From positions 30,001-62,000 of the forward strand of contig DAOVER010000001.1 of assembly GCA_030668875.1 (NCBI GenBank): DNA of 32,000 bases, read 5' to 3'. This stretch comes from Candidatus Heimdallarchaeota archaeon. GTDB taxonomy: Archaea; Asgardarchaeota; Heimdallarchaeia; Heimdallarchaeales; Heimdallarchaeaceae. This document shows positions 11,742-20,238 of the stretch, piece by piece; position 1 is the stretch's first letter; every line of letters begins with the position of its first letter. The notes beneath the pieces are model-generated. The model worked only from the letters and a program-made list of their open reading frames with translations, searched no databases and was not told the origin of the DNA. Made by a program: the position numbers and the translations under genes.

Positions 11742-12719
11742 TTACATTAAAGCTTCCCAGACAGTTGGAGCAGAATCTGGGTAAAAATTCTTTATATCTT
11801 TTATTTCAATTGCAATTTGGCCAGTTTTTCCATGAATAGAGTACGGCATCCTACTAACTCTATTGGTGTCCATGGTTACTTTTCTATCAATTCTTGGATA
11901 ACGGCGTAAAATAATCTCACTAGAGAGTTTCTTTCTAACAACTGAATCATTGGGGATGAGAATGTTATATTTTGTGTGATCAAAATCATCACTATTTTGA
12001 ACTTGTTTTATAATATCTTTTGCCTTATTTACAGATATGCCAAATTCATGTAGTTTTTTAGGAGTTATTTTTTCAAGATACGATTTGGCAGTAAGAGCAT
12101 AAATCCTATTTCTCAAAGGTTTAGATTCATTAGGAATTTCATCTATAGATTGAGATCGTTTTTCATCATGTATAAATGTAAGATAATCTAGAATAGCAAC
12201 TCTTTGATTTTTATCAAATGTTTGGATAAGTGGATCCCTTACCCATCCATGTACTCCTCTTCTTCCAGAAAAAATCCAGATGATATCGTTAAAACCAAAA
12301 TCTTCTCGCATTGTTTGATCAATAAAGACTGCTGCATCTTGAACAAGAGACCAGCATTCTTTACAGTATTGAGCACCTTGACAACCACAGGTTCTCACTA
12401 AATCATATTCATCAATATCAATATCATAGATAAATTCCCGATAGTTCCACTTTAGTTTCTGTATTGGATGTTCTTTTGATGGAGGAGTATCAAAAACTGC
12501 ACCGACATAGGCATCCTTTACAGAATTATTAACCATAAACTCAAGCATTTTTTCTGTGTTCTGAAAAGAAATATTTCTCACAAATCTATTATTACCAACA
12601 ACAAACCCAAATTCTCTTTTTTTAAAATTAGAGAGACCTATAAATGACATGAATTTCTCAACTGGGAATTTTTTTTCGTAATATGCAGAAATTACTTCAG
12701 GTGTCAACTTCTTTTCCAT
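11742..12719 (-). CDS. priS: DNA primase small (catalytic) subunit, eukaryote-like
   Basis: REFGF, catalytic DIDID, Zn motif CGC..[34 protein letters not shown]. Confidence 0.95.
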   Translation of the reverse strand: [325 protein letters not shown]

Positions 12720-12721
12720 AT

Positions 12722-14089
12722 CTAGGCCTTCTTTTGCTTATCACTTGTTTTTGAATTGTCTGTTGTAGTTTCCTTCTTCTTATAGAAGCGTTTGTATGCA
12801 TCTTGGGAATATTTTAACATGTGATTTATTTGAAATCCTCTAACTTTCCAACCAGTTAATAATGTGAAATACCTTGCGCATGCTGATTGATATCTTTGAT
12901 TTATGATTAATCTGGAAATTTCCTCTATCGCTTTATCTACAACTTCACTATTTCTTTTAGACATCTTTACTTTGATGTCTTCGTTAATGTCTTCGAGTTT
13001 TTTGTGAGCCCAATAACAGTAATATCCATTGATACAAGTTTTGCAGCTTGGAGGGTCGTAGTCAACTCCACCTCCAGTTTTACCATAAATGTGATTGATT
13101 TGGTATCCTACACGTTGAACAAATTCGTCATAAGACATACCCACATTATCAATTGAATTACTATACCAAAATCGTAATTGGTCATCTACACTCATACCTA
13201 TTCTTTTCAAAAAAGTTCCTAGTTGCCAGTTCTCTACATGGGATAGATGACCTTTAGCTTGTAGTGTGGCAACCAATTCTTGAATGCATGGGGGAAATAT
13301 ATCTGGTTTGGTGTGGATGGCATCACCATCAGCAAAACCTAGGTTCTTGAAATCCCCTGAATATCTTGTTGATCTCGCAATTTTTGATATTCTATCTTTG
13401 ATTGGTTTAACAGTTACTTCTAAATCCTCATCCTTTTCGATTAAAACTTTAGATTTTTCTATAACATCTTTTAGTTGTTTCTCAAACTCTCTTTTTACTG
13501 CAAGTCGGATATCAGCTAGTCTAACAATCCCCCAACCTTTGTAGAGCAAAGCTTTCTTTGCTCCAACGACCTTAGGGATTTTATGAAAACGGACAGCTAA
13601 TCTTGTATCTAGAACCTTAACCTTCGATCCATATTTTTGTTTTGATTTTGCATACTTACCAGATCTGTAAACTGAGTCTGCTAGATTGAATTCGCGGTTA
13701 AGATTTATTTTGAAAAGTTCATTAATTTCTTCTGTAGTCTTTACGTTATCTTGTCCATATAAATCTTTTAGAACTTGGATTCTTTCCTCAGATTTATTAC
13801 TACTGATAAAACGGAATTCGAAAAGATCTCCTTCAACTTCTACTAGCCAAGAACTTAATCTTGGATCTGTTGATACAGCAAGTCTAAGAAGAAGATGACC
13901 TCCTATCTCTTCTGATATGGTTGAAACCCAATCATCGTCAGACATCCAGGAAGGTCTATTGATAATCCAATCATCTTCTGCTAAAAAACGTTCTAATCTT
14001 GTTTCTGCGAACTTGTACCAACTAGCGACATTTATAGTAATGTCTCCTGGGTCTTTTAAGACATACCAATCTGGAAGTTCAACAGACAT
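12722..14089 (-). CDS. priL: DNA primase large subunit with Fe-S domain, eukaryote-like
   Basis: HLLLRLA...W.[31 protein letters not shown]..G...Y.[18 protein letters not shown]; its stop is 2 nt before the priS ATG. Confidence 0.92.
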   Translation of the reverse strand: [455 protein letters not shown]

Positions 14090-14116: not shown

Positions 14117-15259
14117 TTAGTCTGACTTATTAAAAAATTGTGCTAAAGTTTTTTGATGAGCATCTATCTTTTTAAGATTTGATATTTTTACTCCAACTAA
14201 TCTTATACTCGAAGGATCTTTTGAAGAATATTCTCCTAATAGGGTCTTTACGGCCTCTCTGACTTGCCTTTCAGATGTTTCATGACAGGTAAGAGAATGA
14301 GCTCGTGTAGCTGTTTCAAAATCATTGAACCTTATTTTTAGAGATATAGTTCTAAAGTGCATTTTCTTGTCTTTAGCTTTTGAGACTATGGTTTTTATTG
14401 CAGAATCGATATGAACCCAAATATCCAACCATGAACTATAATTATTGAAGAAGGTACGCTCTTCGCTTATCGATTTCCTTTCGTGACCGTTGAATTTTTC
14501 ATCAGTTTTTTCTGTATTATAACCATTGACAAGTTTCCATGTCTTCAAACCATATTTTCCGAACTTTTGAAATACAAGCTGATAGAATAAATTAGCTAAA
14601 TCACCGCATGTTTCTATAGAATTGTTCTGAAATACTTGGTAACTTTTTTTACCTATTCCAGGAATAGCTGTTATTTTTAATGGTGCAAGAAAATCACTTA
14701 TCTCTAATGGTTTTACTACAGTTAATCCATCAGGTTTATCCACCTCACTGGCAATTTTAGCTAATATTTTTGTTGGTGCAACACCTATTGAGCAGGTTAA
14801 ATGTTCACTCGCAAGGATATCGTCTTTTAATTCAGTTGCTAGCCTTCTAGCTTCTTCATAGTCACTAACAACATTGGTGACGTCAAGATATGCTTCATCA
14901 TTTCCTGCTATCTTCATAATTGGAGAATAATCGGATAAGATTTTCATTATATTCTCTGATACTTTAGAGTAGAGCTTGAAAGTTCCTCTGACAATTGTAA
15001 CGTGAGGACATAATTTCACTGCTTGAGAAATTGGCATACCTGAATGAATACCATACTCTCTGGCTTCGTAAGAGCAAGTGCTTACTACCCCTCTCTTTGT
15101 TTGAGGATTACCTCCTACAATTAGAGGAATACCAGAAAGTTTTGGATTTTCACGTATTTCAACATTAGCAAAAAAAGCATCCAAATCCATATACAAGATG
15201 ATTTTATCAAATGTTTGCTCCTTCTCTGAGAAATATGTCATTTGATTGACTAATGTCAT
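14117..15259 (-). CDS. dinB: Y-family DNA polymerase IV (DinB/Dpo4) with C-terminal PIP box
   Basis: YMDLDAFFANVE, CSYEAREYGIHSGMP, DEAYLD, CSIGVAPTKILAKIAS..KPDG, IPGIG, little finger RKSISEERTF, IRLVGV; C-terminal QKTLAQFF. Confidence 0.95.
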   Translation of the reverse strand: MTLVNQMTYFSEKEQTFDKIILYMDLDAFFANVEIRENPKLSGIPLIVGGNPQTKRGVVSTCSYEAREYGIHSGMPISQAVKLCPHVTIVRGTFKLYSKVSENIMKILSDYSPIMKIAGNDEAYLDVTNVVSDYEEARRLATELKDDILASEHLTCSIGVAPTKILAKIASEVDKPDGLTVVKPLEISDFLAPLKITAIPGIGKKSYQVFQNNSIETCGDLANLFYQLVFQKFGKYGLKTWKLVNGYNTEKTDEKFNGHERKSISEERTFFNNYSSWLDIWVHIDSAIKTIVSKAKDKKMHFRTISLKIRFNDFETATRAHSLTCHETSERQVREAVKTLLGEYSSKDPSSIRLVGVKISNLKKIDAHQKTLAQFFNKSD

Positions 15260-15317: not shown

Positions 15318-17345
15318 TTATTTTCTTCTATTCACAAAGAAAATCGCTGTTAAACCAATTAACCCAATTATTACAATGAATAATCCTATTTCTGTGAATC
15401 CAGTAACAGCTGTAACATCTACATCTCCAGGAGATGGAGTGTCAATTATGAAATCGGTGTTACAGTTGTTAGTATCTTCATTAGCTGGAGATCTTTGTAA
15501 AGTTTCATCCTCTCCTGTGGAAGAACCACTCCATGAAGTTGTACCAGATGCACTCCCTGATCCCCAAGCAACTGCATCTTTGGCATTTCCTGCTGAATCT
15601 TTTAGTATTACTTCATCACCAGTATTTCCAAGAGCTAAATTTCCAAGACCATAATCTGCTGAAGATACCGAGATACCTAAGGCACTCATTTCGCTAACAT
15701 AAGTTGCACTATCTTGAGCAAATACTAGAACCTCATCACTAATAATCTGAGCTCCTTCCGGCATTGTGAATACACCTTCATTGTCTGTTATCGTCCATCC
15801 TTCTATAGATAAAGCAAAACTAAAACCGTTATAGATTTCAGCATACTCACCATTTGGTTCTGAATCTCCATCATACCTAACTTCTGAAATTAAGAGCAAC
15901 CAATCTCCAGTATTGATAACATTAACCTCTTTTTCGATTTCTATCGGACTTCCCACTGTAGGTATTCCAATTAGTTTGATTGTGTGAATGCCATCAGTAT
16001 ATGATGTTGTATCAACGCTTTTGCTAACAATACCAATAGGATTTGTCCATGTATGTATTGAAACAGAATCTATCAGTAGTTCACCTGAAGTATATGTGTT
16101 TACTGCAAATGAAGCTTGGAAATTATAATTTCCAGAAGCAATACCACCTGGAGTTGGTGACACAAGAGCAACAGGTTGAGCAAAACCAACTGGAGTTTCT
16201 CCAGCAGCCCAATCATAATCAAAAACTGTTTTGAAATAAGCTGCTACATTTGCATTCTTTACTATTGCTCCAGCTTCCCTGTTATTTTCAAACGAGTTAT
16301 TAGACCAGTTTATGCTAGAAACTTGAACTGTTTCATCATCTACTGAAATATACTTATTGTGATCAGTCATTCCTTTGAAGAACTTAACTTGAATTCCATT
16401 ATTAATCAATAATTCAGTAACATTTTCAGTAGATGTACCTGGTTCTGGAATAAGGACCCTTACAGATACTCCTCTTAAAGCAGCATCAATAATATCATAC
16501 AAGGCATCACAACTAAATTTGATATATTGTAACTCTAAATCGATTGAAGTGGTAGCATTAGCGATCATACTAGAAATTAGTTCATAACTGTTATCCGGGG
16601 AGAATATTGGAGTTACTTCAGCATATTCAACAAAGATAGCAGGAGAAAATGGGTGTTCATATGTACCACTTGTTTCTGCTGTTTGTAATGCACCTCCATG
16701 AGCTATTACTGAATATGGTGTAGAAATTAGACCATCATCAGTAAACACATCTTCGTAATATAATGCTATGCTAACATCATTAAATACAAATCCCATCTCT
16801 CTATTTGTTCTCGCTTCAGGTGATTCTGGTATGCTTGATGGTGCCCAGTTACCTGAATAAACGTATGCGATTTGATGGTCAACAATCCAGAACTTTGCGT
16901 GTGTGTAAACAAATGAAGAATTTGTCCAGTATACATCAATTCCAGCTACATATAATCGATATGCAGCTTCCTCTGTGTAGTCATCCTCATAAGTGTTAAA
17001 TCTATCGTCAGACAATTGAACAATAACTTCAACTCCTCTACCATGTGCAGCTATTAATTCATCAACCAGAGATTCACTTGATAGTGTGTAGACTTCTAAA
17101 TAAAAGGAAGTTACTGCATTCTTGATTGATCCTAATACTACAGCGTGAGCATTATCAGGTCCTACAAAAGTTGTGATATTTATCGTTCCTGAGAAAGTTG
17201 TTGTTGTAATAGCATCAATTGTTGCATCAGTAGGTGTGTGTATGCTAGATTCTTCTCCAGAAATAGGATTTGAAAAATCAAGAACTACAAACGAACTGAT
17301 TAGTAAAACTAACAAGAAAAAATTAGTAATCTTTATTCTTTTCAT
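15318..17345 (-). CDS. Secreted, membrane-anchored phospholipase D/nuclease superfamily protein with Ig-like and lamin-tail (LTD) domains
   Basis: Signal peptide; two HKD motifs (HAKFWIVD..SGNW; HNKYISVD..SSINWS, NNREAG); Ig-like DTTSYTDG.HTI; LTD LLISEV.YD....GEYAEIYN..GWTITD..LGNTGD.V.L.D; C-terminal TM + RRK. Confidence 0.85.
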   Translation of the reverse strand: MKRIKITNFFLLVLLISSFVVLDFSNPISGEESSIHTPTDATIDAITTTTFSGTINITTFVGPDNAHAVVLGSIKNAVTSFYLEVYTLSSESLVDELIAAHGRGVEVIVQLSDDRFNTYEDDYTEEAAYRLYVAGIDVYWTNSSFVYTHAKFWIVDHQIAYVYSGNWAPSSIPESPEARTNREMGFVFNDVSIALYYEDVFTDDGLISTPYSVIAHGGALQTAETSGTYEHPFSPAIFVEYAEVTPIFSPDNSYELISSMIANATTSIDLELQYIKFSCDALYDIIDAALRGVSVRVLIPEPGTSTENVTELLINNGIQVKFFKGMTDHNKYISVDDETVQVSSINWSNNSFENNREAGAIVKNANVAAYFKTVFDYDWAAGETPVGFAQPVALVSPTPGGIASGNYNFQASFAVNTYTSGELLIDSVSIHTWTNPIGIVSKSVDTTSYTDGIHTIKLIGIPTVGSPIEIEKEVNVINTGDWLLLISEVRYDGDSEPNGEYAEIYNGFSFALSIEGWTITDNEGVFTMPEGAQIISDEVLVFAQDSATYVSEMSALGISVSSADYGLGNLALGNTGDEVILKDSAGNAKDAVAWGSGSASGTTSWSGSSTGEDETLQRSPANEDTNNCNTDFIIDTPSPGDVDVTAVTGFTEIGLFIVIIGLIGLTAIFFVNRRK

Positions 17346-17409
17346 AATTATCTAATATTTTTTTACTTAATAAATATTTATCGACAAAACAAAAATAGGA
17401 AATACTTCT

Positions 17410-17928
17410 CTACAGTATTTTCTCCAATAATTCATAAGCTTTTACTATATCTTCAGAAGCTGATGATCTTCTAGCAGCTGACCTTAACATACGTGAGTAT
17501 TGTCTTAGATCTCTATCTGTCACATCTAACAGAGACATAACATCCTCTTTTGATAGGTTATCTGCATTAGGGATTTCTATTATCTCAGATGCAAATGCAA
17601 GAGGTGTCATTTTTTCAACTATTTTTTGAACTGGCTCCCCAAAGAACTGCTTTAGATAGGTTACATCTTCATCTTTAGCTCCCCATACATATATCAACGT
17701 TTTTTGTTCTCTAAATTTTTCAACGATTTTAATTTTTGATCTAACAAAAACGAATTTCCCTTCACCAATATCCTGTTTTGACACAGAAGTTTGATAATGT
17801 TCTGCGATTTTCTCTAATTGATTTGAGATTTCTTGTTCTTTTTCTGGCTCAAAAATGACTTTCATATTATTACTTTCCATACTTAAAATAAAATTGTTTC
17901 TAACGAATCCTTCAACATTCTTAACCAT
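17410..17928 (-). CDS. Hypothetical protein overlapping the end of the XPD gene
   Basis: Protein-like ORF of about 172 aa; ATG 17928 overlaps the XPD stop (ATGGTTAA). No family recognised. Confidence 0.7.
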   Translation of the reverse strand: MVKNVEGFVRNNFILSMESNNMKVIFEPEKEQEISNQLEKIAEHYQTSVSKQDIGEGKFVFVRSKIKIVEKFREQKTLIYVWGAKDEDVTYLKQFFGEPVQKIVEKMTPLAFASEIIEIPNADNLSKEDVMSLLDVTDRDLRQYSRMLRSAARRSSASEDIVKAYELLEKIL

Positions 17929-20077
17929 GATGAAATTCAAAGAACTTTTCTAATTTTTTTGCAATTTTTTCTTTTTCTGGTTGGACGACGTGAAAATTCT
18001 CTTTCAACCAGTTGGGTAAGTGCTTCTTATAATAGTGACGAGCAAATCGGTAATCCAGAAGAATGATAGCTGCATAATCTTCTAAGCTTCGAATTGGTCT
18101 TCCAGCTGCTTGAGAAGCTCTAGTTAATGCTGGGATATTATATCCAAATTCTCTTCCCTTAGTCGGAAACTGACTTTCTAAATACTCGATAGATGCATTG
18201 ACAGTAGGTGTTGGTCGAGCATAAGGTATCCCTACTACAACTACACTTTGCATCTGGCTAGCAGGATAATCGCTTCCCTCCGATGATCTTCCTCCAAGAA
18301 CAGATAATAGGACTCCACCTTCTCTCTTAGATTCATTCTTGAAGGCTTTGATTAAATCATCCGTTTCTAAAGAGGACATGCCTTTATGAGTAATGAACAT
18401 TGGTTTCGACAAATTCTTTTCTAGTCCTGAATCAAGAATGCTCTCCAATACTGCATAACTTGCACAGAATATGCCTGTATTTTTTGGTGTTGATTCTACA
18501 ACTGCTTCAATGATACTTACCATACTTGCATAGGTTGTAGGTGTTCTATCCTCTAATTTTGATGATAATTTATCGATTATCAAAGTTACATGATTTTCAT
18601 CTTTGTATGGTGATGGTAGTAACAGAGTAACAACTTCATTTGGATTTAGACCTATTAATGAAGTATATGATTCAATTGGGTCAAGTGTTCCAGATGCAGA
18701 AACTGTTGCATAAGTTTTTGAGAAGACTTCATCTGTAATTGTTCGTGGATCCAAAGATAGGGTTACTAATCTTGGAATTGGATTACCTGCTTTTGATTCA
18801 CTTTTTGTTAGAAAATGAGCGAATTCGACCTTCTCTTTAGTTTCCACCAAAACACTAAGATGATTTGCAACAGCTGAAGCATGGGATAAAGGAGCTTTGT
18901 TTTGCTTCATTTGCTGATCTTTTACTAGATCACCTAGATGGTTGAGTGATTGAATTAACTCTTTATCAATTGTAATTTTAGCTCTTCTTTCTACAGTTAA
19001 AAGAAAATTTGACGAATCAATTCTAATTTCCTGATTTTGGTCCATGTTTTTTATTTCATTCATTAAAGTAGATGAAAGAGATTCAAGAAAGTCATAAACT
19101 TCTCCTTCTCTGTGTTTCATAGCTTCTGATGAGGCATTGTCAATAGAATAGTTTGACAAAGATGAACTACTTATATCAACAGCAGTTGAAGGAAGATTGT
19201 GGGCTTCGTCTACAATTACTATAAGATCTGAAAGTTCTTTCTCAAGATTGTTTAAGAGTATTTTTCTAATGAAAGGATTGAAGATATATTGATAACTTGT
19301 TGCAACAACATTTGCTTTAGGAAGTGACTTAACCGAGATTTCAAAAGGACACACTTCTAGATTCTGACCAATTTCTATTAGTTCTTGACTATCTAGAACC
19401 TTATTTTGTATGATTTTATTTACACTTTCTGACTTTGATTTTTTTGCAAGGTTTGTGAAATATTTGCATTTTCCTTCTTTCTTTAGATACCTGCAGATGT
19501 CAGATGCATTTGCAGCATCCACTGCGAATTTTTTGATAATGTGATGTAAGCATAACTCTCTTCTCCCTCTTAATGCTAAACCTGTTACTTGATTGAGTTG
19601 TTTTATTAGTTTTAATTCTTCAGCAACTCTACTCATTTGTTGATGAGTTCTACAACAATATACGATCGTTTTTTTCTTTTCTTTTGCTATTGGTAAAACT
19701 GCTGCTAACAAAGAAATGGTTTTGCCAACACCATTTGCAGCTTGAATAATAATTTGAGACCCTTTTGACATGTTTTCAGAAATTTTTTCTATTATTTGTT
19801 TTTGAAGGGGTCTTATCTCTAAATAAGGGAAGTACTTCTCCCATTCAACAGTTGCTGAACTTATGTCCTCTTTAATACCTTTTTTAATCTCTTTTAATTC
19901 ATCTGGTAACCGATCTGAACCAATATCTCCTTTACCTATACTATCATTCATAGAGATATATGAACCACATTTTTTGCATCTAGATTTTCCATCTACAAAT
20001 AGTATTTTTCCACAAGTAGGACAAAAAGTATAGTTGTCATCAACCTTGACTACATTACCAGAGTTAGACTTATTCAT
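17921..20077 (-). CDS. xpd: XPD/Rad3-family 5'-3' SF2 helicase with Fe-S cluster and N-terminal Zn ribbon
   Basis: Q motif FPY..RP.Q, Walker A ANGVGKT, RTHQQ, four Fe-S Cys (ELC, DIC, GKC, VCPF), DEAHNL, SASGTL, GGRSSEGSD, VVGIPY, QAAGRPIRSLEDY. ATG 20077 preferred over TTG 20122. Confidence 0.93.
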   Translation of the reverse strand: MNKSNSGNVVKVDDNYTFCPTCGKILFVDGKSRCKKCGSYISMNDSIGKGDIGSDRLPDELKEIKKGIKEDISSATVEWEKYFPYLEIRPLQKQIIEKISENMSKGSQIIIQAANGVGKTISLLAAVLPIAKEKKKTIVYCCRTHQQMSRVAEELKLIKQLNQVTGLALRGRRELCLHHIIKKFAVDAANASDICRYLKKEGKCKYFTNLAKKSKSESVNKIIQNKVLDSQELIEIGQNLEVCPFEISVKSLPKANVVATSYQYIFNPFIRKILLNNLEKELSDLIVIVDEAHNLPSTAVDISSSSLSNYSIDNASSEAMKHREGEVYDFLESLSSTLMNEIKNMDQNQEIRIDSSNFLLTVERRAKITIDKELIQSLNHLGDLVKDQQMKQNKAPLSHASAVANHLSVLVETKEKVEFAHFLTKSESKAGNPIPRLVTLSLDPRTITDEVFSKTYATVSASGTLDPIESYTSLIGLNPNEVVTLLLPSPYKDENHVTLIIDKLSSKLEDRTPTTYASMVSIIEAVVESTPKNTGIFCASYAVLESILDSGLEKNLSKPMFITHKGMSSLETDDLIKAFKNESKREGGVLLSVLGGRSSEGSDYPASQMQSVVVVGIPYARPTPTVNASIEYLESQFPTKGREFGYNIPALTRASQAAGRPIRSLEDYAAIILLDYRFARHYYKKHLPNWLKENFHVVQPEKEKIAKKLEKFFEFHHG

Positions 20078-20238
20078 AAGTTCGTTTCTTCTTTTAATAT
20101 GTCTTATTAAAGTCTTTGTCAAGGTTAAAGATGCATAATTAAAAATCTACCAATTTTATATGTTTTTGCTATATTTATTGATTGTAAATAGATTAACTTT
20201 ATATGATTCCGTATCCATTGTATTTACAGCAGCTACTA

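Follow-up and report, generated by a model that had tools for sequence, protein, structure and literature searches.

Eukaryote-like primases of Asgard archaea have been described in two recent studies. Li et al. 2025 (PMC12770985) defined a Heimdall group of primase large subunits (PriL) that contain three extra helices. The representative from Ca. Gerdarchaeota B18_G1 (Gerd_ePriSL) exhibits tight, nanomolar binding of PriS to PriL, a stable Fe-S cluster liganded by C252/334/343/388 of Gerd_ePriL, and synthesis of primers under 9 nt (PMC12770985). Feng et al. 2025 (PMC12680538) studied the same class in Ca. Heimdallarchaeum endolithica, where PriL interacts with DP2's C-terminal domain (CTD) in a two-hybrid assay. 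An origin of the eukaryotic primase among Asgard archaea, earlier than that of Pol alpha, is well supported by the Heimdall-group primases. This case for an Asgard origin is already in print, with a member of the Heimdallarchaeaceae as its model, and the gene described below is one more instance.

We analyzed a stretch of 32,000 nucleotides (the window) from the genome of a member of Ca. Heimdallarchaeaceae that is 92% complete. The priL gene of the window (12722..14089, minus strand) encodes a 455-amino acid protein that matches PF04104 with an E value of 1.4e-44. This was the only PF04104 match in the 92% complete genome, in which priS is likewise single. The nearest homologues of the protein (47–93% identity) are named Ca. 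Heimdallarchaeaceae or Heimdallarchaeota. Comparison of 250 genomes revealed two classes of Asgard PriL: a long class, mostly 430–490 amino acids, that matches the whole Pfam profile, and a short class of about 345–390 amino acids that matches only the first 190–225 profile positions. None of the NCBIfam PriL equivalogs came close to its cut-off on the window PriL, as one would expect of so divergent a protein. Very probably, the window PriL was inherited vertically, has a housekeeping role in the replicative primase as its large subunit, and belongs to the published Heimdall-group type, the closest known archaeal relative of PRIM2. The first-pass annotation, made from the DNA letters, had suspected that the type may not be new; indeed, both papers describe the class, and the finding as posed was therefore already known.

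Architecture of the window PriL

At E values below 1e-10, all sequence matches of the window PriL among solved structures are eukaryotic primase large subunits. Human p58 (PDB 4RR2_B) aligns to residues 64–428 with an E value of 1.5e-25. The four PRIM2-like motifs quoted in the first-pass annotation, which begin at residues 64, 265, 346, and 400, are all there and align with p58 without gaps. PriL contains five cysteines, at positions 268, 349, 352, 358, and 404. In the p58 alignment, C268 and C404 directly face human C287 and C424. In a comparative alignment of 385 sequences, C349 and C358 occupy the second and third Fe-S ligand columns. Thus, the full ligand set reported earlier, including the late fourth cysteine, is borne out. 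The third and fourth ligands are separated by 46 residues in the window PriL, 37–50 in eukaryotes, and 6–12 in canonical archaeal PriL (Loki-group Asgard, Bathyarchaeia, and Euryarchaeota). The second and third ligands are separated by 9 residues, as in archaea (9–10) rather than eukaryotes (11–20, median 17; 17 in human p58). These spacings indicate that the three extra helices are mostly an insertion ahead of the fourth ligand. Gerd_ePriL has nearly the same cysteine spacing (82/9/45 compared to 81/9/46 in the window PriL), the same three helices, and an adjacent priS with a YVG motif. The B18_G1 genome differs in encoding two further PriLs of the Loki type.

An AlphaFold model of PriL (mean pLDDT of 81) predicts the two-domain fold found in human p58. 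The N-terminal PriS-binding domain (amino acids 1–243; 13361..14089, minus strand) is followed by the C-terminal Fe-S domain (amino acids 251–436; 12782..13339, minus strand), in which C268, C349, C358, and C404 are the predicted ligands. The Fe-S domain superimposes on human p58C (5F0Q) with a Z score of 21.2 and a root-mean-square deviation of 2.4 Å over 175 amino acids, a one-sided comparison since a complete archaeal Fe-S domain was absent among the structures listed. For the N-terminal domain, the Z score is 14.6 against the human structure and 11–12.5 against archaeal structures, the highest of which is the N-terminal domain of the Pyrococcus protein. Between the third ligand and a point just past the fourth lies a three-helix segment (amino acids 363–412; 12854..13003, minus strand) common to the Heimdall group and eukaryotes, with helices predicted at high pLDDT for residues 365–375, 381–396, and 400–412. 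An insert in a loop of the CTD is also common to the window PriL and eukaryotes.

Profile searches gave a similar result. The window PriL scores 195 bits over residues 55–453 on a eukaryotic PRIM2 profile and 72 bits over residues 202–362 on a canonical archaeal profile; the contrast is somewhat inflated because the eukaryotic set comprised the best matches to a Heimdall profile (eight members were confirmed by name), and the canonical set was assembled without Thermococcales, Sulfolobales, and DPANN. The N-terminal half scores 57 bits on the eukaryotic profile and −0.5 on the canonical one. His65, Trp81, Gln289, Gly291, Lys295, Trp308, and Tyr335 are shared with eukaryotes and missing from canonical PriL. 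Equivalents of human His300, His303, Tyr347, and His351 are present as well, while Arg302, Arg306, and Tyr345 of p58 are not conserved. In size, the protein is close to the eukaryotic median of 491 amino acids, as had been noted, and about 110 amino acids longer than canonical archaeal PriL (median 346). Median identity is 22.5% to eukaryotes (about 23% to human p58) and 20.2% to canonical archaea, which places the eukaryotic signal in motifs and indels. With canonical PriL the protein shares the short loop between the second and third cysteines, Gln330, a proline ahead of the second cysteine motif, pairing with priS, and, probably, PolD as partner. The terminal histidine motif is common to every PriL group. 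The statement that the protein is eukaryotic along its whole length was thus slightly overstated: it holds for the motifs and the insert before the fourth cysteine, but not for overall identity (about 22%), the archaeal loop, or residues 116–160, which resemble neither eukaryotes nor canonical archaea closely. The window PriL is an intermediate that has the archaeal loop between its second and third cysteines.

Gene neighborhood and the predicted polymerase pocket

The catalytic subunit gene priS (11742..12719, minus strand) lies 2 nt downstream of priL and encodes 325 amino acids with a Cys4 zinc knuckle and, at residues 71–73, YVG, the Heimdall-type motif (Y-x-G). A large subunit longer than the small one and the adjacency of the two genes are both traits of the Heimdall group. 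priS follows priL in 27 of 28 loci of the family, and the lone exception stops at a contig edge. The Y-family polymerase IV gene dinB (14117..15259, minus strand) lies 27 nt upstream of priL. Of the Heimdallarchaeaceae loci that are informative, 25 of 26 have this arrangement, compared to none of 42 loci in the rest of the Heimdall group. Ahead of dinB-priL-priS, on the same strand, the window carries xpd, a gene for a 176-amino acid orphan, and a PLD-lamin-tail gene (15318–20122, minus strand), a run conserved in most family loci. In one family member, a 406-amino acid ORF whose start resembles an IS605/TnpB protein occupies the usual place of dinB (L020:330-1550). A sigma-70 promoter scan of the locus scored below chance; the sigma-70 model does not suit archaea.

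The polymerases of the genome include PolD and two PolBs, neither of which has a cysteine-rich tail, and the Pol alpha zinc finger (PF08996) had no match in the genome, which at 92% completeness is not proof of absence. The DP2 subunit of PolD ends in a motif that aligns, weakly by itself, with the cPIP of P. abyssi, a peptide that binds both PCNA and primase. We modeled PriL residues 1–243 together with the 35 C-terminal residues of DP2. The complex scored 0.78 compared to 0.51 for the best control; 58 of the 80 solved pairs attained the mark used, as did 2 of the 110 mismatched ones. Contacts agreed by 98% between runs and the partner had a pLDDT of at least 67. In the model, Val, Leu, and Phe of the DP2 tail dock on PriL residues 11–24, 59–70, and 205–226, which form the predicted pocket. 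Complexes of like kind have already been solved (4BPX, human p58) and the score may reflect them, so the model indicates likeness rather than binding. The first-pass annotation had proposed structure prediction of a surface that binds the CTD of Pol alpha; a pocket is indeed predicted, but the genome search yielded no Pol alpha-type CTD, so the partner of the pocket is most likely the DP2 tail of PolD. DinB, too, has a conserved PIP-like motif in its tail. As the PolD cPIP is dual-purpose, the DinB motif could in principle be a competitor for this pocket. The reading frame of DP2 (G000:C95:56859-62051, minus strand) is 1730 codons long from stop to stop, compared to 1270 amino acids for P. abyssi DP2, and probably holds an intein or insert.

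These features suggest a model in which co-expressed PriS, bound by PriL's N-terminal domain, makes the phosphodiester bonds, as gene order and the measured Gerdarchaeales orthologue would predict. The Fe-S domain, in which three extra helices would help to enclose the [4Fe-4S] cluster on its computed ligands, would grip the template-primer junction to yield short primers, as in the human and Gerdarchaeales enzymes. The N-terminal pocket would then receive the DP2 tail, which corresponds to that of Pol alpha, so that the primer can be handed off, consistent with the two-hybrid result in Heimdallarchaeum.

Asn287 and other residues specific to Heimdallarchaeaceae

In human p58, Arg306 binds the 5′-triphosphate; it is needed for initiation and critical for dinucleotide synthesis (PMC5333051, PMC5700102). 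In the gap-free alignment with p58, this position corresponds to Asn287 of the window PriL (13229..13231, minus strand). Asparagine occupies the position in all 57 Heimdallarchaeaceae sequences, whereas arginine is found in all 139 canonical archaeal sequences, all 82 eukaryotic sequences, and 94 of 97 other Heimdall-group sequences (a set that excludes B18_G1). The main texts of PMC12680538 and PMC12770985 make no mention of Arg306 or the triphosphate. What our comparison adds to the published class is that, judging by these alignments, the whole Heimdallarchaeaceae family lacks the near-universal arginine with which primers are started. The three exceptions in the other Heimdall-group sequences (P0037, P0050, and L032:4917-6341) form a small separate clade and also have asparagine. 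They keep isoleucine and proline at the other two sites described below, which suggests that the change from arginine to asparagine may have arisen twice.

A scan of all columns revealed just four changes specific to the family, at positions 287, 337, 352, and 424. Cys352 (13034..13036, minus strand) is the extra cysteine in the sequence PPSCKTC that the first-pass annotation pointed out. It is present, but as a trait of the family rather than of eukaryotes, since it occurs in 1 of 82 eukaryotic sequences compared to 57 of 57 in the family, 5 of 97 in the rest of the Heimdall group, and none of 139 canonical sequences; nearly all other groups have isoleucine, leucine, or methionine. Met424 (12818..12820, minus strand; 55 of 57 family sequences) replaces the conserved proline of the terminal His-Pro motif, which is kept in 93 of 97 other Heimdall-group, 79 of 82 eukaryotic, and 139 of 139 canonical sequences. 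Asn287, Cys352, Met424, and the adjacency of dinB all mark one clade; their co-occurrence thus amounts to a single event and provides no evidence of a functional link. The PriL of Ca. Heimdallarchaeum endolithica belongs to the same family and clade (100/99) and is 49% identical to the window PriL. It shares the gene order dinB-priL-priS, the three extra CTD helices, Asn287, and Cys352, and comes from another genus-level lineage.

Substitution of asparagine for the triphosphate-binding arginine would probably weaken or rearrange the grip on the initiating nucleotide rather than abolish it. We favor compensation for Asn287, for example by Arg/Lys326, over a loss of the role in initiation. PriS yielded no clear compensating change specific to the family. 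Ser289 of PriS is present in 25 of 25 family sequences, and other Heimdall-group PriS have leucine or isoleucine there; residues 288–289 (window 11853-11855 to the 11861 region) adjoin the nucleotide-binding stretch. A broader reading, in which this eukaryote-like primase lacks the initiation arginine and starts primers by other means (through a residue that compensates, through PriS by itself, or through an unrecognized partner), alongside the fifth cysteine, the lost His-Pro motif, and a family-specific link to DinB, a translesion polymerase, is possible but doubtful.

Could the PriL CTD have ceased altogether to be the site of initiation, with PriS alone or an unrecognized PriX-like partner taking over this role and PriL reduced mainly to a scaffold and length limiter? 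Besides the loss of Arg306 throughout the family and of Arg302 and Tyr345, the net charge of amino acids 276–345 is −2, compared to +5 in eukaryotes. There is a precedent for relocated initiation in Sulfolobus, where PriX made up for the mutation of a nearby arginine in PriL, which was without effect (PMC5700102), and Gerdarchaeales PriS has weak priming activity on its own (PMC12770985). On the other hand, His281, His284, Lys295, Tyr329, and His333 are invariant in the family, Arg/Lys326 might compensate, and the 57 asparagine sequences form one clade and hence record one evolutionary event. Moreover, neither PriX (PF18689) nor a second CTD-like ORF was found in the genome, although its 92% completeness keeps this from being proof of absence. 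On balance we consider such a relocation unlikely. A weak match to the CTD profile on contig C23 (E value of 0.005) was rejected; its frame is antisense to two longer ORFs. A whole archaeal family apparently replicates with asparagine at the Arg306 position, PriX not having been found, and the Asn287 PriL offers a natural variant for probing the contribution of the Fe-S domain to initiation.

Cys352 could also bind metal, as an alternative ligand or a fifth one, and alter coordination or redox behavior of the cluster, given its invariance in the family and its position three residues from the ligand C349. All four canonical ligands are kept, however, and position 352 is elsewhere a hydrophobic residue (isoleucine, leucine, or methionine) that cysteine can replace without binding metal. 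We therefore consider this role improbable.

Phylogenetic placement and related clades

The first-pass annotation called for a profile search and maximum-likelihood phylogeny, and both place the window PriL on the eukaryotic side, not among TACK, euryarchaeal, or Loki-type sequences. The main tree (IQ-TREE, LG+C20+F+G4; 75 rows, 427 columns) had no outside root; it was built without Thermococcales, which lie nearest to the Heimdall group in the tree of Li et al. (PMC12770985). The more careful trees did not include P0092, P0093, and P0191, rows with long branches. The branch that separates canonical archaeal PriL from the Heimdall group plus eukaryotes has support of 100/100 in this tree, and the split is retained in a 38-row tree. 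Support is 100/99 for the Heimdallarchaeaceae family, 100/98 for the Heimdall group, and 100/96 for eukaryotes. The window PriL nests in the Heimdall group, with PriLs of Heimdall, Wukong, Sif, and Njord archaea, next to the eukaryotic clade and outside it. AU tests rejected a grouping of the family with Loki-group and Bathyarchaeia sequences (p = 0.0002), as well as a split of Heimdall, Loki, and Bathyarchaeia sequences against eukaryotes plus Euryarchaeota (p = 7e-5). Groupings of the family with eukaryotes (p = 0.11) or with all canonical sequences (p = 0.14) were not rejected. These two alternatives only shift the attachment of a long branch, and so they neither establish nor exclude a position of the family nearer to eukaryotes than that of its relatives. 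By these trees, the sister relationship to eukaryotes belongs to the whole Heimdall group and not to the window gene in particular.

That an ordinary archaeal PriL has come to resemble PRIM2 by convergence or long-branch attraction is very improbable. The identity to eukaryotes barely exceeds that to canonical archaea, the N-terminal fold scores differ little, and the separating branch is long. Yet the large indels in common with eukaryotes (three helices before the fourth cysteine and the CTD-loop insert), the many residues that canonical PriL lacks, and the agreement between the site-mixture model, the AU tests, and two published phylogenies largely refute this reading. The chance of a eukaryotic source of priL, whether through late transfer or assembly contamination, is negligible: outside the Heimdall group its best solved-structure and profile matches are indeed eukaryotic, but tree and synteny refute such an origin, since the protein branches among Heimdallarchaeaceae and outside the eukaryotic clade, the ORF is uninterrupted with a GC content of 0.336 (0.31–0.35 in the flanks), the gene order is common to the family, and the long form is present in every scored genome of the class that has a near-full match among those listed.

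Other divergent PriLs appeared in the comparison. A long-branch Heimdall-type PriL (L134:10001-11350; P0333/P0092) is set in chromosomal surroundings with a reverse-gyrase-like gene nearby, and priS is absent among its called neighbors. A side clade of long, eukaryote-like PriLs comprises P0094 (L129:8001-9335, L130), P0165 (L132:10001-11350, L133), P0103, P0104, P0126, and P0187. It has support of 100/99 and adjoins the Heimdall group (96/82), between that group and eukaryotes; the equivalent of Arg306 is missing in all six members. On the long contigs that carry P0094 and P0165, most neighbors are unannotated and the remainder include MoxR/VWA, Csx3, radical SAM, GmrSD, and methyltransferase genes. 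The lack of an adjacent priS in these surroundings suggests mobile elements or viruses; no relatives of the clade were found in phage records or IMG/VR. Finally, P0111, P0144, P0181, and P0192 form a divergent clade of PRIM2-like proteins of about 600 amino acids that stands apart from ordinary eukaryotic PRIM2. One member is annotated in Saccoglossus kowalevskii, and the clade is possibly of viral or endogenous-element origin.
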